Source: Escherichia phage T4
DNA: 64,000 bases
Reading direction: 5' to 3' (one strand)
Sequence record: NC_000866.4
The notes beneath the pieces are model-generated. The model saw only the letters and a program-made list of their open reading frames with translations. It ran no database searches and was not told where the DNA came from. How positions within the stretch are numbered: position 1 is the stretch's first letter; every line of letters starts with the position of its first letter. Shown one piece after another: positions 10,446 through 47,686 of this stretch. The translations under genes were made by a program, and so were the position numbers.

Positions 10446-10916
10446 TTAATCATGTTTCCACACCCCATCGGTATTTGACCAAAGTCGCTGATTATCTGAT
10501 CCTCGCCACAGCTTTTTGGTCGGAAGATTTTTCTCATACTTCCCATCAATAATAACATCAACATATTTAAGCATTTCTAGTTGTTTAATATCTTCAAACT
10601 TATATCCTGTCCACAACCAGATATCTTTCTCCGGAAATCTTGCTTTAACCCAAGAAACTAAATTTGAAATCTCTTCTCGGTTCTGTGGATAAAGTGGGTC
10701 ACCGCCGGTTAAGGTAAGGCCTTGGATATACGATTTGCTTAAATGGGACGCAAGTTCTTTAACGGTATTCATAGTGAATAACTGTCCGTTACGAGCATTC
10801 CAAGTACTACGATTATAACAACCTTCGCATTTATGCAAACATCCAGTGACGAAGAGAACGACCCTACATCCAGGGCCGTTAACGAAATCGCATGGATAAA
10901 TTCTATCATAATTCAT
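10446..10916 (-). CDS. nrdG: anaerobic ribonucleotide reductase activating protein NrdG (radical SAM)
   Basis: Start trimmed to MNYDRIYPCDF; radical-SAM Cys cluster CLHKCEGCYN; 156 aa. Confidence 0.9.
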   Translation of the reverse strand: MNYDRIYPCDFVNGPGCRVVLFVTGCLHKCEGCYNRSTWNARNGQLFTMNTVKELASHLSKSYIQGLTLTGGDPLYPQNREEISNLVSWVKARFPEKDIWLWTGYKFEDIKQLEMLKYVDVIIDGKYEKNLPTKKLWRGSDNQRLWSNTDGVWKHD

Positions 10917-11538
10917 CTTTATATTTCCAAGTATATCCCTTATGAATAGATTGAATTCCTTTGCAACATTTATAAACAGCAGAATGAAAAAATCCTGCAT
11001 TTCTTATTTCAGTTGCTCCAGTTAGTTCTATTGTATTTCCGTCTGGTGAATAGCCAATAACCGTTTTGGTGTTAAAGCGATTTCTAGAACTATTTTTGAT
11101 ATGCTCTTTATGATTAGTAGACAAAGTTCTTCCTGTTAGCCCATCAGATATCCTTTTTCCAAAATCATCAGGAAGAGTTACTTTAGACCTAGCTATGCTC
11201 ATTAGCTTCTTAGTTTTATCGCTTCTTTTTGCGCCACGCTGATTTTCAAATTTCTTAGCTTTTGCATACGCGTATTGTGAAGAAGTAACTTTTCTATGCT
11301 TACTATTACTCATTATCCAATATGCATCATACATCTTTCCACCATATATTTTAGCCAATAAATGGTGAGCAGTATAGTGGGCCTTATAAGTTAAAAATAC
11401 TAAGTTGTCTAAATCATCTGAACCACCCATACTTCTTGGAATTATATGATGAAGTTCATACCCGGCTTTAGTTTGACGGGGCTTAGATGGGTGTTCAGCA
11501 GAATTAACTAGATTTGAATAGATTCTGTCATAATTCAT
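10906..11538 (-). CDS. mobC: HNH homing endonuclease (MobC-like)
   Basis: 210 aa; HNH motif HHIIPRSMGGSDDLDNLVFLTYKAHYTAH; between nrdG and nrdD. Confidence 0.8.
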   Translation of the reverse strand: MNYDRIYSNLVNSAEHPSKPRQTKAGYELHHIIPRSMGGSDDLDNLVFLTYKAHYTAHHLLAKIYGGKMYDAYWIMSNSKHRKVTSSQYAYAKAKKFENQRGAKRSDKTKKLMSIARSKVTLPDDFGKRISDGLTGRTLSTNHKEHIKNSSRNRFNTKTVIGYSPDGNTIELTGATEIRNAGFFHSAVYKCCKGIQSIHKGYTWKYKDEL

Positions 11539-12809
11539 TGGTGCTTAACCCTATGCATGATTTCTTTATTTTTACCGAGATTAAATCCGCGTTCGTTCGG
11601 ATTTCCCAAATAACCACATGTTCTTCTTATGGTATTCATCTTTTTAGGATCAGTTTCTCCACAAATAGAACAAACAAATCCGTTTTCAGTAGGAGTCATT
11701 TCATGGGTACTTCCACATGTAAAACATTTATCTACTGGCATATTAACACCAAAATAATCTAAATGCTGTGCAGCATAATCCCACACGGCCTCAAGACCTT
11801 TTAAGTTATTTTTCATATCAGGAAGTTCAACATAAGAAATGTGACCACCTGTCGCAATGAAATGATATGGCGCTTCACGAGAAATCTTTTCAAACGGAGT
11901 AATATTTTCTTCTACTGAAACATGGAAACTGTTAGTGTACCAGCCTTTATCGGTAACATCTTTTACGCTTCCATATTTTTCTGTATCGAGTTTACAGAAG
12001 CGATAACACAGGTTTTCAGCAGGAGTCGAATATAAACTAAAAGCAAATCCGGTTCTTTCAGTCCACTGTTTAAGATGAGCATTCATTTTAGTTAAAATTT
12101 CTCGTCCAATATCACGACCGACAAGAATATTCAATTCGTGAATACCAATGTATCCTAAAGACACTGAACTTCTACCGTTTTTAAATAACTCAATTATGTC
12201 GTCATCAGGTTTAAGACGAACCCCGAATGCACCTTCTTGGTAAAGAATAGGAGCAACAGTAGCTTTAACTCCTTTTAAGGAACTAATTCTACACATCAAA
12301 GCTTCAAAACATAAATCCATTCGTTCATTAAATAGCTCAACAAATTTCTGTTCATTGAACTGTGTTCCAATATAAGAATCTAACGCGATGCGAGGAAGAT
12401 TCAGTGTTACAACACCAAGATTATTGCGTCCATCAAGAATTTCATTGCCAGTCGAATCTTTCCATACGCTCAAGAAACTACGGCAACCCATCGGAGAAAC
12501 AGGAACAGATGAACCAGTGATAGCTTTATTGTTCTTAGCTGAAATAATATCAGGATACATCCTTTTGCTTGCGCACTCTAGAGCAAGCTGTTTAATATCA
12601 TAGTTCGGATCGTCTTTATAAAGATTAACACCTTCTTCAACGAACATAACAAGCTTAGGGAAAATAGGAGTTATCCCATCACGACCAAGACCTTTAATAC
12701 GATTTTTCAGAATTGCTTTCTGAATCATTCGTTCAGTCCAGTCAGTTCCCGTACCAAATGTAATTGTTACAAAAGGAGTCTGTCCGTTTGAACTGAATAA
12801 CGTGTTCAC
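11535..12809 (-). CDS. nrdD: anaerobic ribonucleotide reductase NrdD, exon 2 (C-terminal part)
   Basis: 424 aa ORF ending with glycyl-radical motif RRTCGYLG and Cys cluster CFTCG...CSICG; upstream boundary is the 3-prime splice site, not a start codon. Confidence 0.85.
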   Translation of the reverse strand: MNTLFSSNGQTPFVTITFGTGTDWTERMIQKAILKNRIKGLGRDGITPIFPKLVMFVEEGVNLYKDDPNYDIKQLALECASKRMYPDIISAKNNKAITGSSVPVSPMGCRSFLSVWKDSTGNEILDGRNNLGVVTLNLPRIALDSYIGTQFNEQKFVELFNERMDLCFEALMCRISSLKGVKATVAPILYQEGAFGVRLKPDDDIIELFKNGRSSVSLGYIGIHELNILVGRDIGREILTKMNAHLKQWTERTGFAFSLYSTPAENLCYRFCKLDTEKYGSVKDVTDKGWYTNSFHVSVEENITPFEKISREAPYHFIATGGHISYVELPDMKNNLKGLEAVWDYAAQHLDYFGVNMPVDKCFTCGSTHEMTPTENGFVCSICGETDPKKMNTIRRTCGYLGNPNERGFNLGKNKEIMHRVKHQ

Positions 12810-13845
12810 TTCATCAATGTGTTCAGTAGAGTTCGCTACTTCTCTACCCGTTTATATGAAACAATGTAATTTGGATAATTGTCATCTAAACACAAATCTT
12901 TAATACGACTTGGGTGGAGTTTTAAATCTTTAGCAGCATCCACAAATGATTTATAGATATTGTCATTTATTTTAACATATTCTGGGACGGGATGAATTGT
13001 TATTTTTATATCTATAACATTTGGATGATTACTAACCTGTTCTTCAGAGCATTTAAGAAATTTTGCAGCTGATTTAAAACTTCTAAATTTATTTCCGGAT
13101 TTTAAAGCTATAGAAACAGTCTTTTTAGCCGTTCTACTACCAATATTATTTTTAACATGAGCTTCACTTCTACTATTATTTTTATAATGCTCAATCAATT
13201 TCTCTCGTATCTTATCTTTATGTTTTAAAGATAAGATTTTACCTTTATGGGCATTACTAAGTTTTTGCTTATGTTCTTCTGAATCCGGATATTTGTTAAA
13301 TTTATATCCACCTATAGATTTATTAAGAATAAATTCGTTATTAAAATATTTCCTAATAAGCATTTCTTCATGTTTAAGGGCCGATTCATAAGAATCAAAA
13401 ACTTGAAGAATTATCCACTTAGCTTTATAATCTTTAAGCTTTTCTTTAACAAGCTTAGATGACGAATTGTATTCTTTCCAATTTGTATCTTTACCATATA
13501 TAGTTTTGAATTTTTTAAAACCTATATAAAAAGACTTATCAGGAAATCTTACCATATAGGTAAATGCTACAGAATTGGCAATTTTTAAGCTTTTTCTTAA
13601 TTTCCATTTCATCGTTTCACCTCGTATTCATATTTATACGAGGATAAACAGCTGCATGTCACCATGCAGTTCAGACTATATCTTCAACTCTTAGAGTTGT
13701 CTGCCGTTTCGGGTCGCTTGACCCTACTCCCTTACATTCATCAGGGATAGTCGTTGGGCATTTACAGCTACTGCTGATTTAGCAACGGATTGTCTCAGTG
13801 AGAGTTTCCCGTTTTAGGCAGATTTTACATGAGCTTGACTTACGT
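12810..13845 (-). mobile_element. group I self-splicing intron in nrdD carrying I-TevII (boundaries approximate)
   Basis: Non-coding structured GC-rich core 13613-13845 recalled as the T4 nrdD (sunY) intron; embedded GIY-YIG ORF; NrdD reading frame interrupted; exon totals 181+424 match the ~605 aa NrdD. Confidence 0.8.
12836..13612 (-). CDS. I-TevII: intron-encoded GIY-YIG homing endonuclease I-TevII
   Basis: 258 aa ORF MKWKLRKSLKIANSVAFTYMVRFPDKSFYIGFKKFKTIYG... inside the nrdD intron. Confidence 0.9.
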   Translation of the reverse strand: MKWKLRKSLKIANSVAFTYMVRFPDKSFYIGFKKFKTIYGKDTNWKEYNSSSKLVKEKLKDYKAKWIILQVFDSYESALKHEEMLIRKYFNNEFILNKSIGGYKFNKYPDSEEHKQKLSNAHKGKILSLKHKDKIREKLIEHYKNNSRSEAHVKNNIGSRTAKKTVSIALKSGNKFRSFKSAAKFLKCSEEQVSNHPNVIDIKITIHPVPEYVKINDNIYKSFVDAAKDLKLHPSRIKDLCLDDNYPNYIVSYKRVEK

Positions 13846-16936: not shown

Positions 16937-17859
16937 TTCAATACCTCAATAGCATTACGTAAACCATTTGCTTTGGCGGTTAAATCCTTAAGAACTTTAG
17001 TATGCTCTTCAATCTGTTTTTCAACTTCAATCAAACGGGTACTGAGATATTCGCGTTCTTCTTTCATAGTATCATTCCCATGATTGGGCTTTGGCGTAGG
17101 TTTAAATTTATTAGGGTCCTTTAACTTAATAACAACTTTAGTTTCAAACAGTGAAAGACCATAATTCGTATTATCATCAAAGGATTCAACTACGTCCATT
17201 TTAGACAATAACGTACGAAGTTTATAAGTCAAAGAACGAATCGTTTTATTATGTTTATTAGCTTCACATGGTTTCATATATGGAAGATTTTTATATATTT
17301 CATGCGGAGCACAAACAATAATTAACAATTCAAATGGTCCATTCTGAGATGATGGAATGAATTTAGCCGTAACCCAATCTTTTACATTTACATTAATAGT
17401 ACGATCATCGCCATGACAAAACAGTCTACGAGAATGCTTAAAAAGCATATTCACATTATTATTAAATTCGTGTGAAAACTCACTGGCAAATTTTTCTTTA
17501 CTATCTTTAGAAAACCATTCTTCTAAATAAGTTCTTTTCACGTCGTTAATAATATTAAATGTAACAACATTATCATTTGATACATTAGTCTCAATGTAGC
17601 TTGGATACATAAATTTTTTAACATTATTAACAGCTATCACAGAAGATAGTAATCGGGAACGTTTGAACCACTCGAGCAAAGAACCAAGAGAATGTGAATA
17701 CGCATTTTGTGTATCTTTACAAATATGGTTTTCCCATCCAATATAGTCTAAAAAATCACGAAGAATATTATTGATTACTTCTCTATGTCCTTTCTGATAA
17801 TCACGATGTTTAGTAATAAGACTGTCAAAATAATCAATATAATGTTTACGAGTTTTCAT
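16933..17859 (-). CDS. hypothetical protein with C-terminal coiled coil (nrdC.3-like)
   Basis: 308 aa; first of three consecutive proteins of similar architecture. Confidence 0.6.
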   Translation of the reverse strand: MKTRKHYIDYFDSLITKHRDYQKGHREVINNILRDFLDYIGWENHICKDTQNAYSHSLGSLLEWFKRSRLLSSVIAVNNVKKFMYPSYIETNVSNDNVVTFNIINDVKRTYLEEWFSKDSKEKFASEFSHEFNNNVNMLFKHSRRLFCHGDDRTINVNVKDWVTAKFIPSSQNGPFELLIIVCAPHEIYKNLPYMKPCEANKHNKTIRSLTYKLRTLLSKMDVVESFDDNTNYGLSLFETKVVIKLKDPNKFKPTPKPNHGNDTMKEEREYLSTRLIEVEKQIEEHTKVLKDLTAKANGLRNAIEVLK

Positions 17860-21357: not shown

Positions 21358-21885
21358 TTATGCGAGTACCGTATTTAACCGTTCTTCAAACTTCCGAAGA
21401 GTGTTCTGGCGTTCAGCTCTTTGCTTTTTGTAAGTTTCAATACGCTCTGAAATGAGAGTGTATCGTTCATTTACTGATTCTTTCATAAAATCAGGAATTT
21501 CTCGAGAAGCTTTAATCTCGTCAAATTTATCAATAACAGCTTGCTCTTCAGCAATTAAGTTATCATACATCAAAATATCTTTCTTGATGAACTCAATATC
21601 TTCTTGAGTTACACGAGATAATTTAGATGCTTTATCCTTTTTGTACTGTTCGTTAGTATCACGAGACCAGTGTAATGTACGATTTTTATTCGTATTCTTG
21701 TAAATTTCTACAATACCAATCTCATCGATAATAACGATCCAATTCCAACGGGATTTGTAAATTTGTCCTCCATTAACAGTGATTTCACCTCCGATTGAGA
21801 TGTCATTAAAGAACTTGCTTTGTGCTTCTGATTTAAATTTACCATCGTTGTAATTTACCAGGTTGAAAATATCTTTAGCGTTCAT
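21358..21885 (-). CDS. hypothetical protein (nrdC.8-like)
   Basis: Start trimmed to MNAKDIF preceded by GGAGG; ORF track extension covers promoter and 5-prime UTR. Confidence 0.55.
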   Translation of the reverse strand: MNAKDIFNLVNYNDGKFKSEAQSKFFNDISIGGEITVNGGQIYKSRWNWIVIIDEIGIVEIYKNTNKNRTLHWSRDTNEQYKKDKASKLSRVTQEDIEFIKKDILMYDNLIAEEQAVIDKFDEIKASREIPDFMKESVNERYTLISERIETYKKQRAERQNTLRKFEERLNTVLA

Positions 21886-21913
21886 TTTGTGTTCCTCCGT
21901 AGTTGATAGTTGT

Positions 21914-21943
21914 ATAGTACCACAGAGGAACGGTCTTGTAAAC
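21914..21943 (-). promoter_or_regulatory. T4-type early promoter with conserved downstream block
   Basis: Minus strand GTTTAC-18-TACTAT followed by acaactatcaactac and GGAGG. Confidence 0.65.
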
Positions 21944-21945
21944 AA

Positions 21946-22260
21946 CTAAAAGAAACTTCTTTCACAATTTTTTCCACTGAACCAAGCGCTCACTGCTTTC
22001 TTAGTTTCAGGAGCAGTGTTATCCATAAACCATTCAAAGGCAGCCTTTTTATGATTCTGGAGGGCTTCTCGGGCTTTAATCTGCTCACGGTCTATTAACA
22101 CTAACATATGAGCCTTTCTTGTCACCAGGGGCTTCTTATGATTTTTTGAATACTCCCAATCATTTGTCCATCGCATCGTTGTTGCGAATTGAAATACAGC
22201 TTCTTTAATCTTAGTTTCGTAAATTTCACGAGCCTTTGAGTATAACATCATTACCTCCAT
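21946..22260 (-). CDS. hypothetical protein (nrdC.9-like)
   Basis: 104 aa ORF. Confidence 0.5.
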   Translation of the reverse strand: MEVMMLYSKAREIYETKIKEAVFQFATTMRWTNDWEYSKNHKKPLVTRKAHMLVLIDREQIKAREALQNHKKAAFEWFMDNTAPETKKAVSAWFSGKNCERSFF

Positions 22261-22342
22261 TTACCAGTTTAATTCTAGTCATCTTTTTGATGGCAGTCCA
22301 TATAATCTATTTCTGAACTGCCTTTTTGTCTTAGAAGGCCTC

Positions 22343-23320
22343 TTATGAATTTATTTCAGAAGAGTAACCCGTAGCGATTTCTTCCCAACCGTTTTTGTCG
22401 GTCATAATAAAGTCAGCAAGATAAAGTGCAGTACGCAGTGAAACATTACGTAAACGGTTAACATTGACTTTCATCCATGATAATGCTTTATAAGTTTCTT
22501 CATCAGAAAGACCACGCTTTTGCATCATGTCGGTTGAAAGAATAACATCTTCAACCCTGACCATAATTTCTTCATTAGTGTGAACACCCAAATCCAAATA
22601 AACTGAGCGGGACACTAATGCTTGTAAATGTGGAGCAAGTTTAGTACCACGGTCTAATTCGCGGTCAATGTCAACGTTTGTGATAAAAACAATTGTTCCT
22701 TTAAATTCGAGCTCACGCTCAATGCCTTTTTCTTCTAAGTAAGAAGATGCAGTGCTCCAGCAGACTTTACGGGTCTCTCCAGTGTCCAGAGCAGCTTTCA
22801 GAAGATTAAGAATGTCCATATCAGAGAAAACATCCACATCATCAATCAAAAGGACAGAATTCTCTTCACGATTATTCCAAAGCTGTTCATAAAGACCGAT
22901 ACCAGAGATTTTACCGTTAATGCTTTTATACTCAATGTATCCAATATCATTTGCTTTATTCAAAGCTTTATCTAAAGAATATGTTTTACCAATACCCGCC
23001 GCACCAGAGATAATTAATGAACGAATATTTCCGTTAATAATACCATTCGTCATCATTCCCATAACATTAAATCTTTTATTAATGCGGGTTTTCATATCTT
23101 CATATGATTCTTTAACTTCTTCAACTTTTACACCATCATATGAAATGTCTGATTTGTAAACCCAAACACCGCGACGTTTACCGTCAATTTCAACAAAAAC
23201 TTTACCATCTCCTTGTGCATCTACCGGAGCATTATCAGGGAACCATTCACCTAAGAGCTCAAAAGTTCCAGAGATTTCTTTACCGAAGTACATACCCTTA
23301 TTGATAGTTACAGTTTTCAT
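22343..23320 (-). CDS. P-loop ATPase, AAA-like (nrdC.10-like)
   Basis: Walker A GAAGIGKT and Walker B VLLIDDVD; start trimmed to MKTVTINKG. Confidence 0.7.
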   Translation of the reverse strand: MKTVTINKGMYFGKEISGTFELLGEWFPDNAPVDAQGDGKVFVEIDGKRRGVWVYKSDISYDGVKVEEVKESYEDMKTRINKRFNVMGMMTNGIINGNIRSLIISGAAGIGKTYSLDKALNKANDIGYIEYKSINGKISGIGLYEQLWNNREENSVLLIDDVDVFSDMDILNLLKAALDTGETRKVCWSTASSYLEEKGIERELEFKGTIVFITNVDIDRELDRGTKLAPHLQALVSRSVYLDLGVHTNEEIMVRVEDVILSTDMMQKRGLSDEETYKALSWMKVNVNRLRNVSLRTALYLADFIMTDKNGWEEIATGYSSEINS

Positions 23321-23354
23321 TTTATTCTCCAAATCCGTATCAGTTGATAGTTGT

Positions 23355-23384
23355 ATAGTACCATAAAGCTTTATGCTTGTAAAC
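23355..23384 (-). promoter_or_regulatory. T4-type early promoter with conserved downstream block
   Basis: Minus strand GTTTAC-18-TACTAT; preceded by terminator and A/T-rich UP-like tract. Confidence 0.65.
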
Positions 23385-23406
23385 CGTTTTGTGAAAAAAT
23401 TTTGAA

Positions 23407-23432
23407 ATAAAAAAGGGAGCCCGAAGGCTCCC
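23407..23432 (-). terminator. rho-independent terminator after nrdC.11-like gene
   Basis: Minus-strand gggagccttcgggctccc hairpin followed by TTTTTT. Confidence 0.7.
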
Positions 23433-23434
23433 TA

Positions 23435-24445
23435 TCATTTATAATAACTTCGATGGTTTTCAAGATAAACCCTCTCAAGGAAGTCATCCCAGAAACTCAT
23501 GTCTACTTTTTGCTGCATACCGTTCTTAGAAGCTTCAGTAGATGCTGCTTCTACTTGATCGACCACATCTTCCAAAAACTCTTGAACGGTTTTAAATGGA
23601 TGCTTACCCAACTTCACGTCGAGAATAAATGGAGCATCTTGGAGTGGATAAACCAAGTCACCAGTTTTGTAAATTTCCAATAGTTGAAGTCCACCACGAC
23701 AAGCATGGCTCAGAGCTTTCCAGTCAATGCCTTCATTGGCTTCGGCCTTACGAGCACGTTCGCCGTATTCAGCATCTAATTTGTTCAGTGACTGCTTAAG
23801 CTCAATAAGAGAAAGCGTTGTCTGATATTTACGACCCAACACTGTGTAAAACGTTTGTGGGCCTGTTTTCTCATGATTATGGAACACCCATTCACAGAAT
23901 TCGTTTTCTGGAAGACGATGCTTAATATCTTCAACTTTAGTACGACGCTGCTTAATGGAACCATCTTCTTGGTAATCAACCCATTGCTCAGGGATTTGAT
24001 TAACTACTTTCAATACATCGCGTAATGCAGCCAAACGAGAACCCTTGACGCCGTATTTAGAAGCTTGCTTGCGGACATATCCTAAATATGATTTCATGTT
24101 AGTCGTATAAAAACGAGAACGGTTGTCTTGAATAAACTTCCAAACATCAGGCAAATCGGATTTAACCACTAGTTCAGGTGGAGTGTGAAGCATATCCAAT
24201 GCTACAGGTTCACCATCTGCTGCTAATTTAAAGAAATACTTAAGACTATACAATTCGTGGTCAATATTATCTTTAGTGTTTTTAGATGATGTGTTGTTGG
24301 TATTTTTACTCATGTGCTCTTTGACGTTTCCAATAAGAATATCGCGAGCAGGAGGAACAAAGATTTCTTTAAAATCTACATCAGATTCTGGAGTAGAAGT
24401 TCCATAAAGATGACTACCAAAATAAGACTTAACTACAGTTTTCAT
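23435..24445 (-). CDS. putative nucleotidyltransferase-fold protein (nrdC.11-like)
   Basis: N-terminal GS-x10-DVDF resembling the pol-beta type nucleotidyltransferase signature; start trimmed to MKTVVKSYFGS. Confidence 0.55.
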   Translation of the reverse strand: MKTVVKSYFGSHLYGTSTPESDVDFKEIFVPPARDILIGNVKEHMSKNTNNTSSKNTKDNIDHELYSLKYFFKLAADGEPVALDMLHTPPELVVKSDLPDVWKFIQDNRSRFYTTNMKSYLGYVRKQASKYGVKGSRLAALRDVLKVVNQIPEQWVDYQEDGSIKQRRTKVEDIKHRLPENEFCEWVFHNHEKTGPQTFYTVLGRKYQTTLSLIELKQSLNKLDAEYGERARKAEANEGIDWKALSHACRGGLQLLEIYKTGDLVYPLQDAPFILDVKLGKHPFKTVQEFLEDVVDQVEAASTEASKNGMQQKVDMSFWDDFLERVYLENHRSYYK

Positions 24446-25208
24446 TATTAGACCTTTCATAATCTTCATTAAATTGTACAATCAATCGATGATAATTAGA
24501 TTTTGGATATCCTAATTTACTTATATAAGTTCCGAATGACCCACGTTTAGGTCTATTTAATTTAATCCATAACTTATAAAGTAAGTCATAGTCTTGCCAA
24601 TGTTTACCAGTTCTTTGTCTAATTTTAGATGAATTTGATTGTTTCTTTTTAGCTTCAAAATTATTCAAAGATTTTTTGACTGCAGCAGAGTGTTTTTCTT
24701 TAACTCCCGGTCGTTTAAAAGCAGCTTTCACCCCTTTAGATATTTTTTCTTTAACTTCCGGTTTGTTTTGTGCTTCTAACTGGGATTCTGAAATTTTAGC
24801 CCTTATTTCAGGAAGACTTAATGTTATCGAACGTTTTTCTCTGTATTCATTAGACTTCCACATTTCTTTCATTGTATTAGAATGTATTTTTGAAAATTTT
24901 TCTCTAACTAACTGATATCCTCTTGAAGTTAATTTGAGATTTCTTCCTAAAGAATCTTCTCCAAAATTATAAAATGACCACCATGCATAAATTAATCCAG
25001 GCGAATTGTAATGAATTTTAGCTAAAAGCCAATGGGCTATAAAATGCTCTCTAGCTGTTAATAAAACTAGATTATCAGAATCATCATTACCACCAATACA
25101 AGATGGAATAATATGATGCTTTTCCGTATAAAAATTTAATTTAGATTTATCTAATTTTCTGAGTTTTCCTTTCTTAATTAAATTATTATATACTTTAGTA
25201 TAATTCAT
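24429..25208 (-). CDS. mobD: HNH homing endonuclease (MobD-like)
   Basis: 259 aa; HNH motif HHIIPSCIGGNDDSDNLVLLTAREHFIAH. Confidence 0.8.
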   Translation of the reverse strand: MNYTKVYNNLIKKGKLRKLDKSKLNFYTEKHHIIPSCIGGNDDSDNLVLLTAREHFIAHWLLAKIHYNSPGLIYAWWSFYNFGEDSLGRNLKLTSRGYQLVREKFSKIHSNTMKEMWKSNEYREKRSITLSLPEIRAKISESQLEAQNKPEVKEKISKGVKAAFKRPGVKEKHSAAVKKSLNNFEAKKKQSNSSKIRQRTGKHWQDYDLLYKLWIKLNRPKRGSFGTYISKLGYPKSNYHRLIVQFNEDYERSNNENCS

Positions 25209-25282
25209 TGGTTCTTCGTCTCATTTAATTTTGCTTTGCATTTATAACACATGTCTGTTCCACTTGAAATAAACATATTTCC

Positions 25283-25828
25283 TCACTTTGAAATCATAGT
25301 TGGAATAACAGAATCAAGATAAGTCTTTAGTGCAATAGCTTCCTCTTTCTTTAATGTAATGATATGTGATCGAAAATCATCAATTTGACGAATAGATACT
25401 ACATCTCCCTCTTCATAGCATTTTGAAACATTTAAAATAGTTTCATCATTCTGATTACAGGAGTTAGTAATAATAGCATTACATTTTTTAAACCATTTTA
25501 AATTATGTTTTCTTTTAGTAGAATCATAAAAATATTTAATGTTAGTTATAAAATTATCCCAATTATTAATTGATAAGCACATTGACTCGCTTTTAATATT
25601 AAATCCTGGGCATGAAGAATAAAAATGAATTTTATGCTCATCATTAATGCTTACAATTTTATCAGTGTAAGCATATTCAATTTGGGTTAAACGAACAATT
25701 TCGCTAGGCGTAAAATATAACATGTCATCTTCTTGCGTCAAACGATACATGTTATTTACTTTTTCTATAGCCAATTCACCAAAAAGTGGACTAACTTCTA
25801 ATACTAGTCGTTTCGCCTCGCTCATCAT
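25283..25828 (-). CDS. hypothetical protein (mobD.1-like)
   Basis: 181 aa ORF downstream of early promoter 25961-25990. Confidence 0.55.
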   Translation of the reverse strand: MMSEAKRLVLEVSPLFGELAIEKVNNMYRLTQEDDMLYFTPSEIVRLTQIEYAYTDKIVSINDEHKIHFYSSCPGFNIKSESMCLSINNWDNFITNIKYFYDSTKRKHNLKWFKKCNAIITNSCNQNDETILNVSKCYEEGDVVSIRQIDDFRSHIITLKKEEAIALKTYLDSVIPTMISK

Positions 25829-25960
25829 TACATACTCCTCTGAATCATATTAATAATGTTATTCACCAGATTATAAGTAAACATTGGGTAATTATATTGA
25901 ATCATCACATATATAACAAACAAAACTTTCATTCTCTTCTCCTTGGCAGTTGACAAGATT

Positions 25961-25990
25961 ACTATACCATAATCTTGTCAACTTGTAAAC
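25961..25990 (-). promoter_or_regulatory. T4-type early promoter inside 12-bp inverted repeat
   Basis: Minus strand GTTTAC-18-TATAGT; dyad ttgacaagatta/taatcttgtcaa at 25950-25981. Confidence 0.55.
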
Positions 25991-26154
25991 CATTAAATGA
26001 CGTTTTCGATAAAATTTTGAAGCTTTGTATGAGCATCAACCATGATTTTCATTTCTTCCTTGGAAAAGCTGTGCCTCTTTCCCGAGAAGAACATTCATAG
26101 TCAGAAACTGCATTAGCATATTCTTCAATTAGCTTCATTAAAAACATCTGTTTT

Positions 26155-26722: not shown

Positions 26723-26750
26723 GATGTTCTCCTCTTTATCCGATGGTTGT

Positions 26751-26780
26751 ATAGTACCACAGCTCAAACGGAAAGTAAAC
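26751..26780 (-). promoter_or_regulatory. T4-type early promoter
   Basis: Minus strand GTTTAC-18-TACTAT immediately after terminator 26791-26814. Confidence 0.65.
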
Positions 26781-30278: not shown

Positions 30279-30740
30279 TCATTGAGTTTTAATTACTGCT
30301 TTAGAAGCCTTTCCTGGTAAACGACGACTGTTGATAATTGCCATCCTACATTGAAGTGACGGGTCTTTGAACTTCTCGTTAGGTTTACAAACTGTAAATC
30401 CAAGCCAAAGATTTCCATCTGTGATTTCTAAACGTCCAGGACGATATTCAACCCCATCAATAAAATCCTCGTCAATGTCAGGACGCGGAGGCATACTCAG
30501 GAATTCATTAACTTCTAAAACATGGTCTTTTATTTTATGGAATAATTCAAAAACGTATGTCTCATCAATCTCCCGTTGAATTGCGCGATCAAGAAGATGT
30601 TGAGAATATTTTAGATGAAACGATGAGACTCCTGCTGCTTTTGATGCCTCACGAATCTCATTGTTAATTTGACGAAACTCCGACTCAAAGTGACGACGAA
30701 GCTTATTTCGACGGATAAAAACTTCTGTATTGATAGTCAT
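30279..30740 (-). CDS. regB: RegB site-specific endoribonuclease
   Basis: 153 aa; position and size as T4 regB; early promoter directly upstream. Confidence 0.85.
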   Translation of the reverse strand: MTINTEVFIRRNKLRRHFESEFRQINNEIREASKAAGVSSFHLKYSQHLLDRAIQREIDETYVFELFHKIKDHVLEVNEFLSMPPRPDIDEDFIDGVEYRPGRLEITDGNLWLGFTVCKPNEKFKDPSLQCRMAIINSRRLPGKASKAVIKTQ

Positions 30741-30767
30741 GTTATTCTCCTCTTAACTGATAGAAAA

Positions 30768-30797
30768 ATTATACCACAGTCAAGAGGAAAAGTAAAC
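30768..30797 (-). promoter_or_regulatory. T4-type early promoter of regB
   Basis: Minus strand GTTTAC-18-TATAAT then GAGGAG and regB ATG. Confidence 0.7.
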
Positions 30798-30799
30798 AG

Positions 30800-31120
30800 T
30801 TATTCTTTAAATCTAATCAATTTATTCATAGACTTTGAAACTTCGGCACGAACCTCATGTAGATTTTTGAGCTGTTCAAGACGCTGCGTATAGTAAGCAA
30901 TTTCATCTTCTTCGAGACAGTCCTGCGAATCTTCTTTAAGATAACGTGCATAGTCCTGGAAAGCGTTACGGACTACTTCCTGGAAGTCATCAAGACTTTG
31001 AATTTTCTTAGGAGCAACAGATACACGACGAGGGGCAGTATAATACTCATAACCAAACCCTGCGCTTAATTGAGCCATTAGTATTTTTCCTCTGGTTGGA
31101 ACACTGCACGACAAGCCCAC
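30800..31120 (-). CDS. hypothetical protein (vs.3-like)
   Basis: 106 aa ORF. Confidence 0.5.
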
Positions 31121-31380
31121 ATACTGGCTTCTTTGAGTTTCGTTTTAGCAATAGTTAACTGATCGAGACTTTCAGCATAATTCTTCGCGAATTCACAGTC
31201 TTCGCAATTATCTAGTGCTTCCCAGAATTCATCATATAAAGCATCAAAGATAAGTCCTAAACGAACTTCAGCGTCTTTAATAGCATTTACTTTACCGATT
31301 TTCTCTTCAGTATGTGGTTTATAACCCTTAATATCTTCAATCATATTTGACTTCCTCACCAGTACATAATACGTATTCAA
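31078..31380 (-). CDS. acb2: Vs.4-like protein, probable Acb2 cyclic-oligonucleotide sponge (anti-CBASS)
   Basis: About 90-100 aa ORF at the vs.4 position; T4 Vs.4 is the described Acb2; true start may be internal (MIEDIKGY). Confidence 0.6.
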
Positions 31381-31556
31381 CTAAACGAATAGGTTCATGA
31401 ATGCCATAGCCTTGAACAGAAATTTCTGTCGTAGGATAAATTCCATCAATATCACCCATATTCCACGCTTCATTAAATTGCTGTTCGCCTGAGTTACTAA
31501 ACCACTCGCGAAAGCATTTAGCACATCTTCAGAACCTTCAATAATTATCTTTGCCA

Positions 31557-31919
31557 TTACAAACTTTCAGTAAAGGTACGAGCGATAACGTCGCGCTGCT
31601 GTTCCGGAGTCAGAGAGTTAAAGCGAACTGCATAACCGGATACACGGATGGTCAGCTGCGGATATTTTTCCGGATGCTTAACTGCATCTTCCAGAGTTTC
31701 ATGACGCAGAACGTTAACGTTCAGGTGTTGACCACCTTCAATTTTAACTGTAGGTTGTGGCTCAATTTCAATTTCACGGGCATGCAAACCATAGAAAATT
31801 TCTGGGTCTACAAAAGAGTCCTCTTTAAAGGTTTTAGAGACAATAATTCGTGCTTGAATACCATCTTCAAAATAAATAGTACCTTTATGTGTGCCTTCAA
31901 GAATTTGATATGCTTTCAT
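31557..31919 (-). CDS. glycyl-radical spare-part protein (GrcA/YfiD-like, vs.6-like)
   Basis: 120 aa; C-terminus [59 protein letters not shown] carries glycyl-radical motif RVSGYA. Confidence 0.8.
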
Positions 31920-31926
31920 ATAAACC

Positions 31927-32307
31927 TCAATTAGAAAATAAATTTATCCAAGATTGTTCTTTAATTAAAAATGGCTCAGAATCATATGCCATTAAACTTT
32001 GCGTAATTAATCCTTTAAAAGGTCCATCAATAAATTCCATGGTAAAATATGGAATTTTATTCATTAGCCGTGCATTAGGAGCAGTGCACAAAACTCTGCA
32101 TCCTTTGAATACGCCTTTTTGTAATTTGTATTGCTTGGGATAAAATTCGCTCAAAATGTTATTTTTTGCCAAAATTTCAAAATGATTCACCAATTTATTT
32201 TTAATAGTTTTTGGCGAAAAATAAAGATATTCGAAAAGCTGAGTGTCTGTCATCATTGCATTCCGATTACGAAAAACTGTGGACGAGTAATACCACCAAT
32301 GCAACAT
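31927..32307 (-). CDS. hypothetical protein (vs.7-like)
   Basis: 126 aa ORF. Confidence 0.5.
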
Positions 32308-32912
32308 TTACTATTACAGCAGTAGTGTACGGTGTCAATATGGACACTATAAATCTTATCCATATCAGGAGATTTGACAGGCTCATCAATTATATACAAA
32401 ATTCGCGAAAGCTTTAAACCTCTGAACTTGCTTCCTTTATTACCAATAAAACTGCGTACAGAATCAGTAAATAAACGAAAACGTATATCATCATTAGAAT
32501 AACGCGAAAATTCCTTTTTGATGTTATTTGCAGAAATTTTAGCATAAGCTGAAGTATTAGAAAGAACAATAACTGTTCCGCCATCATACAACCAATTAGC
32601 AGCAAAGTTAGTCACAGCAATTGATTTACCGGATTGACGTCCACCATCTAGTCGAAGTGTACAATACTGTTTAAGTAAGTCTTCAAATGGCGGGATATAT
32701 TCGTTTTTACAAATTTCTTCTACTCTAGCATCAGAATGGTGTGTAAAAGCATTCATCAGGGATAGATAAGGACCAGTTAAAAATGTTCTCATTTCTTCTC
32801 TATAAGCTCTATAAGTTTGGGCCATTCCGTGGCACATGAATTGTCCATTTCTGTATTTACCCATTACCGCGCTTGGGCTCGACCTTATTACAGGTTGGCG
32901 GGAATCCCTCAT
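32253..32912 (-). CDS. hypothetical P-loop protein (vs.8-like)
   Basis: 219 aa; Walker A-like GGRQSGKS; start probably over-extended. Confidence 0.5.
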   Translation of the reverse strand: MRDSRQPVIRSSPSAVMGKYRNGQFMCHGMAQTYRAYREEMRTFLTGPYLSLMNAFTHHSDARVEEICKNEYIPPFEDLLKQYCTLRLDGGRQSGKSIAVTNFAANWLYDGGTVIVLSNTSAYAKISANNIKKEFSRYSNDDIRFRLFTDSVRSFIGNKGSKFRGLKLSRILYIIDEPVKSPDMDKIYSVHIDTVHYCCNSKCCIGGITRPQFFVIGMQ

Positions 32913-32938
32913 ATAATCATGAGGTCCAGGTTGTTCCC

Positions 32939-33355
32939 TTATGCATAAATCGCCTTACCGTAGTATTTGTACCAAGTAGGACGTTGTGCAATTTTTTCAT
33001 CTAAACGAGCTTGTGATATAGCAATAGAAGCTTCATGGGGAATATAATCACCACGGAATTCCTGAGGAATATCACTAATATCCTGGACTGTAGTATCCTT
33101 GATATTAAAACCACGTTTTAAACATTCAGCTATAAGCTCAATTTGACGTTTACGTAAGAACTCGAGCTTATCGTAAAAGAATGTAACATGACCTGCGCCA
33201 AGGATAAAAGTAGGACTGATTTTAAAATCACGAACACGTTTACCGTTAGCAACATGCTTACGAACTGCACCAAAAACACGCGGCAATTCACGATATTCAG
33301 CCATTAAGTGTTGGTCAGCCAATTCAGATACTAAAGTAAGGTTGATACGAGTCAT
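32939..33355 (-). CDS. denV: endonuclease V (pyrimidine dimer DNA glycosylase)
   Basis: 138 aa [28 protein letters not shown]...; matches T4 endo V. Confidence 0.95.
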
Positions 33356-33385
33356 TTTAGTGTTCTCCTGTAGTTGATAGGTCTA

Positions 33386-33414
33386 TAGTATCATACCTAC
33401 AGGAGATGTAAACT
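33386..33414 (-). promoter_or_regulatory. T4-type early promoter of denV
   Basis: Minus strand GTTTAC-17-TACTAT. Confidence 0.65.
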
Positions 33415-33415
33415 G

Positions 33416-33718
33416 TTATTTATCTTTAATTGCTTTAGCTGCTTCGATAGCCGCTTGCTGAAGGTCATCCATAGACATGCCGAACTTAGAAGCAAAGTTA
33501 TCAATTTTCTTTTCGACGGCATTCAAAGGCTTGGCCTGTTTACCTTCATTAGCGCCAGGAAGAGCGAGAATACGCTCTCTGTCAATATAAAGGCTTACAA
33601 GTTTCTTACGGTCTTTATCGGGCAAATCATGAAATGAATGGGCCTTTTTATTTACAGCGGCTTCTAATTTACCTGCGCCCACTCGCGCTTCGGCAATAAA
33701 TTCTTGATATGTTTTCAT
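33416..33718 (-). CDS. ipII: internal protein II
   Basis: 100 aa; N-terminus MKTYQEFIAEA shared with ipIII (capsid targeting sequence). Confidence 0.85.
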   Translation of the reverse strand: MKTYQEFIAEARVGAGKLEAAVNKKAHSFHDLPDKDRKKLVSLYIDRERILALPGANEGKQAKPLNAVEKKIDNFASKFGMSMDDLQQAAIEAAKAIKDK

Positions 33719-33769
33719 ATGTTTCCTTTAAATGTAAATATTTTTATTATTCTATCCTAGAATTGTGAT

Positions 33770-33799
33770 AATATATTCACAATTCTAGGAGTTGTAAAC
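33770..33799 (-). promoter_or_regulatory. T4-type early promoter of ipII
   Basis: Minus strand GTTTAC-18-TATATT; -10 sits between 12-bp inverted repeats 33757-33788. Confidence 0.65.
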
Positions 33800-33833
33800 T
33801 GCTTTTATTTAAGCGTCCCAAGTATAAGCTTTA

Positions 33834-34415
33834 TTAAGAATTACCACGGGCTGCATTAGCAACGGCGTAAGCGTACTGAATATTAGCGTCTTTAAACTTA
33901 CCTTTAGAGGTATCTATTTCTGCCTTAAAGCCGCCTTTAGTCATAACATCGGCAAATTCTTTACGGAAAGCCATTGCATCAAGACCTTTCCATGATGATT
34001 TATGCTTGGCAAATTCAAGACCTGCGAAGTTGACAGCTTTAGCCAATTTATTATCAATGACCCATTTACCGGCTTTAGGCACAAACTTCGGGCCTTTCTG
34101 TTTAGAGAACAGTTTTAAATTCCAGCGGCGAAGGTCTGCATCAGCTTTAACAAATTCTGAGTCTAAGTTACTAGCAACAACATCTTCAATATGAGCAAAT
34201 TTAAGTCCGTCAACTTCAATATTTAAATCGGTACGCCAGCGAAGTCCTTCCCAAGCGAAGGCTTTAAAGTCGGAAGCCTTTGTAGCTAAGTACCGTTCAA
34301 TAGGAGCTGTTTTAGGGTCAAAGCCGTTTCCTGATCGGTAGGTCCACTCATCTTTGTTAATGCCTTTGGCCTTTACTACAGAAGCTTCGGCAATAAATTC
34401 TTGATATGTTTTCAT
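33834..34415 (-). CDS. ipIII: internal protein III
   Basis: 193 aa; N-terminus MKTYQEFIAEA. Confidence 0.85.
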   Translation of the reverse strand: MKTYQEFIAEASVVKAKGINKDEWTYRSGNGFDPKTAPIERYLATKASDFKAFAWEGLRWRTDLNIEVDGLKFAHIEDVVASNLDSEFVKADADLRRWNLKLFSKQKGPKFVPKAGKWVIDNKLAKAVNFAGLEFAKHKSSWKGLDAMAFRKEFADVMTKGGFKAEIDTSKGKFKDANIQYAYAVANAARGNS

Positions 34416-34468
34416 ATGTTTCCTTTAAATATTTTAATTAGTAATTGTCTATTCAAGTAATTGTGAAT

Positions 34469-34498
34469 ATACTATCACAATTCCAAGAGAAAGTAAAC
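34469..34498 (-). promoter_or_regulatory. T4-type early promoter of ipIII
   Basis: Minus strand GTTTAC-18-TAGTAT; -10 sits between 8-bp inverted repeats 34459-34482. Confidence 0.65.
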
Positions 34499-37905: not shown

Positions 37906-37937
37906 AGTATTTCCTTAGGTTGGTATAATTAGATAAT

Positions 37938-37967
37938 ATAATATCACGTTTCTAATAGATTGTAAAC
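37938..37967 (-). promoter_or_regulatory. T4-type early promoter
   Basis: Minus strand GTTTAC-18-TATTAT upstream of e.6-like ORF. Confidence 0.6.
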
Positions 37968-38623: not shown

Positions 38624-38666
38624 TTTATTCTCCAAGTTATTTTCTGTATCAGTAGTTGATAGTTGT

Positions 38667-38696
38667 ATAGTACCATGGAAGAACAAGGATGTAAAC
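38667..38696 (-). promoter_or_regulatory. T4-type early promoter with conserved downstream block
   Basis: Minus strand GTTTAC-18-TACTAT followed by acaactatcaactac. Confidence 0.65.
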
Positions 38697-38825
38697 AGTT
38701 TTGTGAAAAAATTTTTAAAAAGTTTTAGGGAATTCTAGGGCGGAGAGGGGCAATTAAAAGATAGGATAATATATTATAAAGGGTATAAACTAAATGATGC
38801 CTAGAGAGGTCTGGAAAGGCTTAGA

Positions 38826-38857
38826 TACCAAAAAGCCCCAACCTTTCGGTCGGGGCT
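38826..38857 (-). terminator. rho-independent terminator closing the tRNA / small-RNA cluster
   Basis: Minus-strand agccccgaccgaaaggttggggct hairpin followed by TTTTT. Confidence 0.7.
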
Positions 38858-38864
38858 AACCGTT

Positions 38865-41590: not shown

Positions 41591-41878
41591 TTACAAAAGA
41601 TTTTTAGCAATAATCTTGAGATGTGCCGCAGAAATGTGTTTAGCTTTAAACAACGCAGTTTCTTCAGCAGGAGAGATAACGATTGTAGCACCATCCTTTT
41701 TAGCAGACCACCCATCACCTAGGTAAACAGTACCTTTGATTTCTTCGCCATCAACCAGACTAATCATTGGTTTACCTTCTCGTCCTTTATTTGCTTTAAT
41801 AACTTCAGAAGTAAGAGTAGCTTCGGTAATGGTAGAAACCGGGGTAGTTGTAGAAGTAAATTCTTTAAATGTTTTCAT
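41591..41878 (-). CDS. ipI: internal protein I (IPI), injected anti-restriction protein
   Basis: 95 aa MKTFKEFTSTTTPVSTITEA...; capsid targeting N-terminus like ipII/ipIII. Confidence 0.85.
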   Translation of the reverse strand: MKTFKEFTSTTTPVSTITEATLTSEVIKANKGREGKPMISLVDGEEIKGTVYLGDGWSAKKDGATIVISPAEETALFKAKHISAAHLKIIAKNLL

Positions 41879-41909
41879 TTTTATTTTCCTAATTAATTTT
41901 GATGAGGTA

Positions 41910-41939
41910 ATAGTATCACTACCTCATCAGTATGTAAAC
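41910..41939 (-). promoter_or_regulatory. T4-type early promoter of ipI
   Basis: Minus strand GTTTAC-18-TACTAT; -10 sits between 9-bp inverted repeats gatgaggta/tacctcatc. Confidence 0.65.
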
Positions 41940-41951
41940 AACTTTGTGAAA

Positions 41952-45975: not shown

Positions 45976-47686
45976 TAACCTTAATTGGTTTGTCGGTGTT
46001 GTTGAAGATAGAATGGACCCATTAAAATTAGGTCGTGTTCGTGTTCGTGTGGTTGGTCTGCATCCACCTCAAAGAGCACAAGGTGATGTAATGGGTATTC
46101 CAACTGAAAAATTACCATGGATGTCAGTTATTCAACCTATAACTTCTGCAGCAATGTCTGGAATTGGAGGTTCTGTTACTGGACCAGTAGAAGGAACTAG
46201 AGTTTATGGTCATTTTTTAGACAAATGGAAAACTAATGGAATTGTCCTTGGCACGTATGGTGGAATAGTTCGCGAAAAACCGAATAGACTTGAAGGATTT
46301 TCTGACCCAACTGGGCAGTATCCTAGACGTTTAGGAAATGATACTAACGTACTAAACCAAGGTGGAGAAGTAGGATATGATTCGTCTTCTAACGTTATCC
46401 AAGATAGTAACTTAGACACCGCAATAAATCCCGATGATAGACCGCTATCAGAGATTCCGACCGATGATAATCCAAATATGTCAATGGCTGAAATGCTTCG
46501 CCGTGATGAAGGATTAAGATTAAAAGTTTATTGGGATACCGAAGGATATCCGACAATTGGTATTGGTCATCTTATCATGAAGCAGCCAGTTCGTGATATG
46601 GCTCAAATTAATAAAGTTTTATCAAAACAAGTTGGTCGTGAAATTACAGGAAATCCAGGTTCTATTACAATGGAAGAGGCGACGACTTTATTTGAGCGTG
46701 ATTTGGCTGATATGCAACGGGACATTAAATCACATTCTAAAGTAGGACCAGTCTGGCAAGCTGTCAACCGTTCTCGTCAAATGGCGTTAGAAAATATGGC
46801 ATTTCAGATGGGTGTTGGTGGTGTAGCTAAATTTAACACAATGTTAACTGCTATGTTAGCAGGAGATTGGGAAAAAGCGTATAAAGCCGGTCGTGATTCA
46901 TTGTGGTATCAACAAACAAAAGGCCGTGCATCCCGTGTTACCATGATTATTCTTACGGGGAATTTGGAATCATATGGTGTTGAAGTGAAAACCCCAGCTA
47001 GGTCTCTATCAGCAATGGCTGCTACTGTAGCTAAATCTTCTGACCCTGCTGACCCTCCTATTCCAAATGACTCGAGAATTTTATTCAAAGAACCAGTTTC
47101 TTCATATAAAGGTGAATATCCTTATGTGCATACAATGGAAACTGAAAGCGGACATATTCAGGAATTTGATGATACCCCTGGGCAAGAACGATATAGATTA
47201 GTTCATCCAACTGGAACTTATGAAGAAGTATCACCATCAGGAAGAAGAACAAGAAAAACTGTTGATAATTTGTATGATATAACCAATGCTGATGGTAATT
47301 TTTTGGTAGCCGGTGATAAAAAGACTAACGTCGGTGGTTCAGAAATTTATTATAACATGGATAATCGTTTACATCAAATCGATGGAAGCAATACAATATT
47401 TGTACGTGGAGACGAAACGAAAACTGTTGAAGGTAATGGAACTATCCTAGTTAAAGGTAATGTTACTATTATAGTTGAAGGTAATGCTGACATTACAGTT
47501 AAAGGAGATGCTACCACTTTAGTTGAAGGAAATCAAACTAACACAGTAAATGGAAATCTTTCTTGGAAAGTTGCCGGGACAGTTGATTGGGATGTCGGTG
47601 GTGATTGGACAGAAAAAATGGCATCTATGAGTTCTATTTCATCTGGTCAATACACAATTGATGGATCGAGGATTGACATTGGCTAA
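45959..47686 (+). CDS. 5: gp5 baseplate hub / cell-puncturing device with lysozyme domain
   Basis: 575 aa; internal lysozyme domain MAEMLRRDEGLRLKVYWDTEGYPTIGIGHL paralogous to e; C-terminal VxGxxxxx beta-helix repeats. Confidence 0.95.
   Translation: MEMISNNLNWFVGVVEDRMDPLKLGRVRVRVVGLHPPQRAQGDVMGIPTEKLPWMSVIQPITSAAMSGIGGSVTGPVEGTRVYGHFLDKWKTNGIVLGTYGGIVREKPNRLEGFSDPTGQYPRRLGNDTNVLNQGGEVGYDSSSNVIQDSNLDTAINPDDRPLSEIPTDDNPNMSMAEMLRRDEGLRLKVYWDTEGYPTIGIGHLIMKQPVRDMAQINKVLSKQVGREITGNPGSITMEEATTLFERDLADMQRDIKSHSKVGPVWQAVNRSRQMALENMAFQMGVGGVAKFNTMLTAMLAGDWEKAYKAGRDSLWYQQTKGRASRVTMIILTGNLESYGVEVKTPARSLSAMAATVAKSSDPADPPIPNDSRILFKEPVSSYKGEYPYVHTMETESGHIQEFDDTPGQERYRLVHPTGTYEEVSPSGRRTRKTVDNLYDITNADGNFLVAGDKKTNVGGSEIYYNMDNRLHQIDGSNTIFVRGDETKTVEGNGTILVKGNVTIIVEGNADITVKGDATTLVEGNQTNTVNGNLSWKVAGTVDWDVGGDWTEKMASMSSISSGQYTIDGSRIDIG

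Follow-up and report, generated by a model that had tools for sequence, protein, structure and literature searches.

The early promoters of bacteriophage T4 are textbook material and were reportedly treated by Liebig and Rueger (1989) and by Wilkens and Rueger (1996). Short-repeat-mediated deletions of T4 in the rII, e and 39-56 regions are said to have been described by Singer, Owen and Mosig. The T4 early promoters (Pe) share an 'uber' UP/-35/TGn/-10 consensus, and a further consensus has been recognized besides these elements (PMC2988021). In the PeSL elements, a terminator or stem-loop is combined with an early promoter, a Shine-Dalgarno (SD) sequence and an ATG; these elements occur in hyperplastic regions and flank the indels that distinguish close relatives (PMC2839356, PMC4122927). 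In RB49 and phi1, inverse PCR revealed circles whose crossovers lie between the -10 and the SD/ATG of the PeSLs on either side (PMC2839356); crossovers may also fall near the -35 or the A/T-rich region. A later paper applied the PeSL model to the T4/PST pair, for which it gives the consensus TTTACW-N17-TAYWAT (PMC4122927). Shuffling by recombination at early promoters is this published PeSL model and is already known (Arbiol 2010; Comeau 2014). Hairpin control has been described for the T4 genes e, soc, 49 and I-TevI: the read-through RNA hides the SD, and transcripts from an internal promoter lack the 5' arm and are translatable (PMC3014915).

The window analysed here is a 64,000-nucleotide stretch of T4 DNA, which matches the T4 nrdC-region record U76612 at 100% identity and complete T4 genomes at about 99.7%. 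It contains three copies of a 22-bp block. The block sites agree with Pe in the GTTTAC -35 element, the 17-bp sigma-70 spacer, TGn plus TAnnnT, the A/T-rich upstream element, the early strand, and the small early ORFs downstream; there is no difference in kind. They also resemble the PeSLs in the order of elements, in their setting and in the location of crossovers, and the T4/PST consensus is the same motif. The stem-loop part is represented by a terminator at block 2, a hairpin at block 1 (z = -4.7), and a weaker hairpin at block 3 (z = -2.4). The blocks lie among the small ORF runs nrdC.x and e.x, where the gene content is variable in relatives. There is little new in the block finding itself, since both the promoters and their role as recombination points have been published.

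There are several differences from the known systems. The RB49/phi1 elements have sigma-70-perfect promoters and GGGG/CCCC stems and were defined experimentally, whereas the T-even elements were termed analogues, not homologues, by the 2010 authors (PMC2839356). Mini-circles have been shown only for RB49/phi1 (PMC2839356). The stem is placed upstream of the promoter in PMC4122927, whereas many of the T4 stems straddle the -10. The short-repeat deletions of T4 likewise have endpoints in direct repeats of about 10-20 bp. However, those repeats are fortuitous, whereas the present ones are functional promoter parts at gene boundaries, and the recombination products therefore stay expressed. Finally, the internal promoter of e, soc, 49 and I-TevI is late, whereas the arrangement predicted here concerns early promoters genome-wide.

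Six copies of one promoter core

The 22-mer AGTTGATAGTTGTATAGTACCA has three exact copies in the window (Table 1), and no copy was found across 100 dinucleotide-preserving shuffles. The first-pass annotation had located the first two copies correctly and had placed the third at 38653-38674, one base low. The two partial copies that it listed are genuine. The promoter holding the 14-nt copy lies upstream of mobD.5 in the T4T numbering, which is mobD.6 in U76612, and the denV promoter indeed has the shorter spacer that was ascribed to it, as seen in the promoter census. The promoter scan also bore out that the minus-strand block, which reads TGGTACTATACAACTATCAACT, comprises the -10 and the first transcribed bases. 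It is made up of a TGn-extended -10 (TGG-TACTAT), a discriminator (ACAACT), and the putative +1 A with six further transcribed bases (ATCAACT). The predicted start sites are 21907, 23348, and 38660, and the block spans -15 to +7 in the promoters of nrdC.8, nrdC.10, and e.8. The whole T4 genome, assembled from the unannotated record, has six exact copies at about 27.1, 53.9, 55.4, 70.7, 163.7, and 167.1 kb, every one on the early strand; the copy at 163.7 kb is upstream of a motA-like ORF. The three copies in the window are only half of this six-copy family.

In U76612, the annotated -10/-35 signals coincide with blocks 1 and 2, of which the second bears the label 'early promoter 54.4', and a site of the same format lies upstream of e.8 at block 3. 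The reading of the blocks as promoters is supported in this way, and we infer their early-promoter activity from the U76612 annotation and the literature (PMC2988021). In the sigma-70 scan, all three sites are TTTACA-17-TACTAT with TG, TTTACA being GTTTAC in the sigma-70 register. The extended -10 TGnTAnnnT is present as TGGTACTAT at all three. An A/T-rich, UP-like region AAAATTTTTTCACAAAAC is found at P(nrdC.10) and P(e.8); the corresponding region of P(nrdC.8) is less regular, and the nrdC.9 coding sequence extends into its -35. On the early-transcribed strand, each promoter is followed, after a 5'UTR of 22-37 nt, by an ORF that has a Shine-Dalgarno sequence. The terminator at 23414-23433 directly precedes the UP element of P(nrdC.10) and forms with it a composite terminator-promoter cassette, an architecture that recurs at the T4 163.7k and 146.9k copies. 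A Pfam search of the three driven genes and the cassette ORFs described below found only DUF4031 (in cassette B) and weak P-loop matches in nrdC.10. No functional link between the genes driven by the block promoters is evident from their sequences.

The minus strand of the window was also surveyed for GTTTAC with a 17- or 18-bp spacer, and 17 credible GTTTAC-N17/18-TAnnnT sites were found. The earlier statement that all fifteen early promoters share GTTTAC and TA(C/T)(T/A)AT holds roughly: 14 sites have the strict -10, and three more carry TAGTAT, TATATT, or TATAGT. In the whole T4 genome, there are 41 sites of the GTTTAC-N17/18-TAnnnT type on the early strand and one on the opposite strand.

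Table 1. Coordinates of the block copies, promoters, and hairpins in the window.
Feature	Position	Strand	Evidence or remark
Predicted read-through RNA hairpin	21872-21945	-	nrdC.8 spacer GUUCCUCUGUGGU pairs with ACUACGGAGGAAC, 13 bp
Block copy 1, early promoter of nrdC.8	21901-21922	-	exact match; U76612 -10 signal; -10 TACTAT 21919-21914
P(nrdC.8)	21914-21943	-	-35 GTTTAC 21943-21938; 18-bp spacer; -10 21919-21914; nrdC.8 ATG 21885
Block copy 2, early promoter of nrdC.10	23342-23363	-	exact match; U76612
P(nrdC.10)	23355-23384	-	-35 23384-23379; -10 23360-23355; nrdC.10 ATG 23320
Intrinsic terminator hairpin	23414-23433	-	8 bp, 6 GC, T-run; computed; terminator annotated in U76612
Partial block copy, 14 nt	26746-26759	-	GTTGTATAGTACCA (TGGTACTATACAAC read on minus strand); exact-match check
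Early promoter holding the 14-nt partial copy		-	U76612 label 'early promoter 57.9'
P(regB), one end of 3,701-bp T4/T6 indel	30768-30797	-	crossover within CTGTTTACTTT
Near-copy of block (19/22), denV early promoter	33372-33393	-	17-bp spacer; sequence comparison
P(ipIII), opposite end of T4/T6 indel	34469-34498	-	also right end of 1,094-bp ipII-ipIII indel (TH09, SH-1)
Block copy 3, early promoter of e.8	38654-38675	-	exact match
P(e.8)	38667-38696	-	-35 38696-38691; -10 38672-38667; e.8 ATG 38623
Terminator hairpin about 140 bp upstream of P(e.8)	38834-38857	-	0.5-1.2 kb insertion site in G10400, TH09, SH-1

Probable common descent of the block promoters

The new observation is that six T4 promoters have an identical core from -15 to +7, a much closer agreement than the consensus of the class provides. 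The blocks are very probably sigma-70 early-promoter cores that form one subfamily by descent and exchange, and the homologies of their cassettes are used for shuffling of the PeSL type. Their primary role would be transcription initiation right after infection.

The exact conservation reaches through the discriminator and the initial transcribed bases, and the subclass includes the promoter upstream of the motA-like ORF. Both features could reflect an operator, that is, a phage or host factor that binds -15 to +7 and co-regulates a subclass of early promoters including that of motA, by shut-off or by Alt stimulation. The mechanism of early shut-off is left unexplained in reviews, and Alt stimulation varies despite identical -35/TGn/-10 elements (PMC2988021). 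However, such a factor is unlikely: the block has no dyad symmetry, no binding protein suggests itself, a function common to the six downstream genes is not evident, and RNA polymerase alone suffices for these data.

The six cores might also be identical only because this core is functionally optimal, having neither a common history nor a role in rearrangement. Among 12 orthologous nrdC.8 promoters, the block is invariant while the spacer and the codon third positions of the coding sequence vary, which is consistent with purifying selection. Moreover, parts of the block (TGn, TAnnnT, and CTATCAACT) reappear in other T4 early promoters, in which extra consensus regions are known (PMC2988021). 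Convergence of this kind is nevertheless quite unlikely to be sufficient. A weight matrix was trained on the other 35 T4 promoters, with the block-type copies left out; the probability of the block under this matrix is P = 1.5e-7. The matrix predicts 1.3e-5 identical pairs among the 41 sites, whereas 15 were observed, and the six cores are therefore a subfamily and not independent draws from the class consensus. The identity also extends beyond the parts that are constrained by the consensus. P(nrdC.10) and the promoter at T4 ~146.9 kb have a common 58-nt exact run that includes the non-consensus spacer AAGCATAAAGCTTTATGG, and the 27.1k and 167.1k copies agree over 43 nt, which take in the block and the 5'UTR, and over the 12 bases at the beginning of the coding sequence. 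The chimeric promoters at the cassette junctions of relatives, described in the next section, likewise argue against convergence alone.

Exchange between the members of the subfamily is suggested by their mosaic structure: spacers and 5'UTRs are reassorted between copies around the constant block. An incompatibility (cycle) test of spacer type against 5'UTR type gave zero cycles, so that the mosaic pattern is suggestive of reciprocal recombination and is not proof of it. An exact-match scan of IMG/VR found 3-6 block copies per T4-like genome, ahead of at least 8 different genes. In one IMG/VR genome, a 67-bp cassette of the nrdC.8 type is also present at a second locus.

The reading by descent and exchange may be formulated as follows. 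The six T4 cores would owe their likeness to common ancestry and to exchanges among promoter cassettes, beyond mere convergence on the consensus, and would have been kept invariant by selection for promoter function. The promoter cassette (terminator/UP element, -35, spacer, -10, 5'UTR, and Shine-Dalgarno) would then be a short patch of homology as a by-product of its function, and the recombination system of the phage might occasionally use such patches. In this manner, the phage could gain, lose, or replace promoter-led ORF cassettes in the interval from a promoter core to the Shine-Dalgarno sequence of the gene that follows, and expression would not be disturbed. This helps to explain how the T-even phages exchange small accessory genes while their expression remains unbroken.

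Rearrangement at early promoters

The relatives of T4 have 0-3 promoter-led ORF cassettes between P(nrdC.10) and nrdC.10. Cassette A is a 486-nt ORF, cassette B consists of DUF4031 and a 150-nt ORF, and cassette C is a 201-nt ORF. There is no cassette in T4 and ECp13, C in EH2 and PinkRuby, B in HY03, B+C in BYEP02, A+B in G4500, and A+B+C in FT. Four arrangements were sampled directly, and a search with the FT array gave graded coverage over 598 records. The homology of T4 with the cassette-bearing relatives stops inside block 2, after ...CTATCAA, and TH09 has breakpoints at 23330/23344.

Chimeric promoters were found at two of the junctions. The PinkRuby promoter equals P_B of BYEP02 through ACAACTATCAAAACAAA and then continues as P_C; the EH2 promoter equals P_B as far as GTTTACA and then continues as P_C. 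The crossovers are located either in GTTTACA or in CTATCAAAACAAA, a sequence overlapping the block at its 3' end. Since EH2 and PinkRuby both lack cassette B and their junctions differ, two independent events are indicated, one at the block 3' end and one at the -35. We infer the direction of each event, and likewise the recombination pathway, homologous or microhomology-based. T4 was considered as a simple deletion product of arrays of the HY03 or BYEP02 type, and this was rejected, because its 5'UTR CTGATACGGATTTGGAG agrees with none of the promoters next to nrdC.10 in those arrays and corresponds instead to the 5'UTR found at the T4 27.1k and 167.1k copies. Simple loss of cassettes from any of the sampled arrangements would not yield the T4 5'UTR at nrdC.10. 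The general PeSL model gains examples in the T4 neighbourhood from the nrdC.10 array, with its up to three promoter-led cassettes and two chimeric junctions, and nrdC.10 is a locus where cassette exchange could be measured.

In the genomes sampled, there is no breakpoint inside block 1 or block 3; the event closest to block 3 lies at the terminator 140 bp upstream. The first-pass annotation had suggested rearrangement at the blocks and had named a lack of breakpoints there as its refutation. Breakpoints do map to block 2. The general idea is thus upheld at this block and at other promoters of the window, and it is the specific deletion from copy to copy that was not found.

A further set of examples is given by promoter-to-promoter indels near the internal-protein genes. 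T6 lacks the 3,701 bp between P(regB) and P(ipIII), with ipIII, ipII, denV, and vs.3-vs.8 missing, and its junction is a chimeric promoter with an 11-bp common sequence, CTGTTTACTTT. TH09 and SH-1 lack ipII and ipIII, and the P(ipIII) core is joined to the denV Shine-Dalgarno sequence; in the same two phages, an ORF cassette of 562 bp separates the core of P(37967) from the gene of this promoter. The replacement of ipI in T6 and TH09 begins within the spacer of the 41572 promoter. Between 16.6 and 49 kb there are 17 distinct indels, of which 5 touch a promoter, versus about 1.1 expected from position alone. This enrichment is inflated and confounded, since an indel of whole genes has to end between genes, in DNA much of which is filled by promoters.

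The deletion of DNA between the copies themselves was tested with three deletion-junction queries of 350 bp per side. They were searched in 50,697 phage records at a query coverage of at least 80%, and junctions joining any two blocks were found in 0/675, 0/707, and 0/724 of the T4-like records that match the halves separately. This search of related genomes, which the first-pass annotation had recommended, thus returned none among about 700 T4-like records. T4 laboratory variants keep the 1,440-bp and ~15,000-bp spacings of the blocks. In addition, the intervening genes had been called non-essential, which does not apply to the 15.3- and 16.8-kb intervals: these hold e (lysozyme), tk, regB, denV, and rI, and also internal-protein genes. 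When the lysozyme gene e is lost, no plaques are formed. Recombination among the three copies that would delete or duplicate the 1.4, 15.3, and 16.8 kb between them is very unlikely, and for fixed variants this proposal is largely refuted by the genome comparison, although 22-bp direct repeats are in the size range of rare short-homology recombination, patches of <50 bp have been cited (PMC2839356), and other parts of the window do show deletions from promoter to promoter, of 1.1 and 3.7 kb. The value of the comparison is that of a clean test, in which the literal prediction failed in about 700 genomes.

Some other candidates were examined. In the duplication-junction query for copies 1 and 2, the halves are 720 bp apart in normal genomes and were joined as one place. 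Promoter swapping at nrdC.8 was considered for EH2, ECp13, HY03, and others, in which 22 extra bases matched past the block; it was rejected as chance similarity of the spacer, and the nrdC.8 promoter in these phages is orthologous and colinear. The mutant clone T4_7t1 (OL964745) has four deletions in the window, at 10802-12846, 16955-17859, 23554-25599, and 30789-32842. These were rejected as block events, their ends having no microhomology and none ending in a block. Three of them, each of ~2,046-2,054 bp, look engineered or artefactual.

Predicted hairpins around early promoters

A separate pattern was observed in the T4 early promoters. In most of them, the spacer is complementary to the +1 to +35 region of the same promoter or to its SD, and the -10 falls in the loop of the resulting hairpin. 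The duplexes of own pairs have a mean of -11.7 kcal/mol, versus -7.4 for swapped pairs, and none of 20,000 permutations was as low; the own partner ranks first in 17 of the 41 promoters. The sense strand gives -18.0 and the antisense strand -13.8 kcal/mol (p = 5e-4), and the difference is -0.55 in the swapped-pair control. The folds of regB, ipII, ipI, and the promoter at 25990 have z = -4.6 to -5.5. The SD is inside the stem in 11 of the 18 strong stems.

The promoters' own transcripts start inside the loop, so that a role at the RNA level is limited to read-through transcripts. On this basis, the early promoters might be self-insulating expression modules, in which the read-through RNA folds and leaves the next gene untranslated, and RNA from the own start, which has no 5' arm, is translated. 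This model is offered tentatively, and we are inclined to doubt it rather than to accept it. Folding might in addition shield the read-through RNA from RegB or make it accessible to Rho. If self-insulation were true, it would account for the free shuffling of promoter-led cassettes. Stems overlapping the -10 have been drawn for the RB49 PeSLs (PMC2839356); the papers accessible to this analysis describe no genome-wide, SD-occluding RNA role for the early promoters of T4. The hairpin pattern is the sole part of the present results that is possibly worth further work.

At the three blocks, a strong stem is predicted for P(nrdC.8) only; P(e.8) has a weak one, and P(nrdC.10) has none. In the predicted fold of the nrdC.8 hairpin, the -10 is in the loop and the Shine-Dalgarno sequence GGAGG is in the stem. 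Its minimum free energy is -20.8 kcal/mol (z = -4.69), which was equalled by 0 of 200 shuffles, and its own duplex ranks 1 of 41. Under the self-insulation model, the six-copy block family would be a long-loop or stem-less variant.

Inverted Repeats around the Early Promoters

The T4 early promoters lie inside promoter-specific inverted repeats, in which the spacer is complementary to the promoter's own +1 to +35 region and the loop holds the -10 element. In the duplex between the spacer and this region, the mean energy over the T4 early promoters was -11.7 kcal/mol for own pairs vs -7.4 kcal/mol for pairs swapped between promoters (0/20,000 permutations). The antisense RNA of the hairpins is less stable than the sense RNA (p = 5e-4), and the Shine-Dalgarno sequence is part of the stem in 11 of the 18 strong stems. 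This pattern suggests that the hairpins block translation only in read-through transcripts. The repeats and the other features are listed in the table.

Early-promoter hairpins and other features (window coordinates)
Feature	Window	Strand	Compared sequences
Early-promoter inverted repeats	21872-21945, 25920-25992, 30727-30799, 33729-33801, 41869-41941	minus	also whole T4 (L034-L037)
nrdC.10-nrdC.11 cassette array	23331-23413		L003, L004, L028-L031
Terminator loop upstream of P(nrdC.10)	23422-23425		L030
Segment missing from T6	30797-34498		L027 15997-16014
ipII, ipIII missing from TH09, SH-1	33360-34453		L038, L039
ipII/ipIII repeat	33687-33760, 34384-34457
Site of 562-bp ORF cassette	37910-37922		L038, L039
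Insertion site upstream of P(e.8)	38825-38859		G10400, TH09, SH-1
T4_7t1 deletions of 2,045-2,054 bp	10802-12846, 23554-25599, 30789-32842		OL964745 (L026)
Tandem 24-nt units	47426-47569

Indels at Early Promoters and Terminators

A segment of 3,701 bp, containing ipIII, ipII, denV and vs.8 to vs.3, is missing from phage T6. The junction is a chimeric early promoter, and CTGTTTACTTT is common to the junction and the early promoters P(ipIII) and P(regB). Phages TH09 and SH-1 contain neither ipII nor ipIII; in both, the Shine-Dalgarno sequence of denV is joined to the P(ipIII) core. In addition, an inserted ORF cassette of 562 bp separates the core of the promoter at 37967 from the next gene in these two phages. 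A 74-nt repeat with 84% identity spans the 5'UTR and initial codons of both ipII and ipIII. This repeat is the shared internal-protein leader, already described by Repoila 1994, as cited in PMC2839356.

Between nrdC.10 and nrdC.11, the intergenic DNA forms a polymorphic array in which promoter-led ORF cassettes, at most three, follow one another: a 486-nt ORF, DUF4031 with a 150-nt ORF, and a 201-nt ORF. The full three-cassette array, used as query, gave graded coverage among 598 related genomes, a pattern that would fit relatives with no cassette, with some of them and with all three. In the terminator upstream of the early promoter P(nrdC.10), the stem is the same between phages and the 4-nt loop is inverted, being TTCG in T4 and PinkRuby and CGAA in BYEP02. 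In G10400, TH09 and SH-1, additional DNA of 0.5-1.2 kb is inserted at another terminator hairpin, which lies about 140 bp upstream of the early promoter P(e.8) and near rnaC.

Further Copies, Deletions and Repeats

Of the four deletions in OL964745 ("mutant T4 clone T4_7t1"), three are 2,045-2,054 bp long and the fourth is 905 bp. No microhomology was found at the ends of any of the four when compared with the window. The near-equal sizes of the three larger ones suggest engineering or an artefact of the assembly.

Outside the window, at about 167.1 kb of T4, a promoter copy shares its 5'UTR and the initial 12 bases of coding sequence (ATGAAAATCGCT) with the lipoprotein-like gene at about 27.1 kb (L034-L036). 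The reading frame behind this copy ends after 8 codons. The copy looks like the remnant of a copied gene start.

The tandem 24-nt units, in five to six copies, appear to encode an eight-residue, V-x-G-x-rich repeat. They presumably make up the repeat region in the gene for the baseplate hub/tail lysozyme (gp5).
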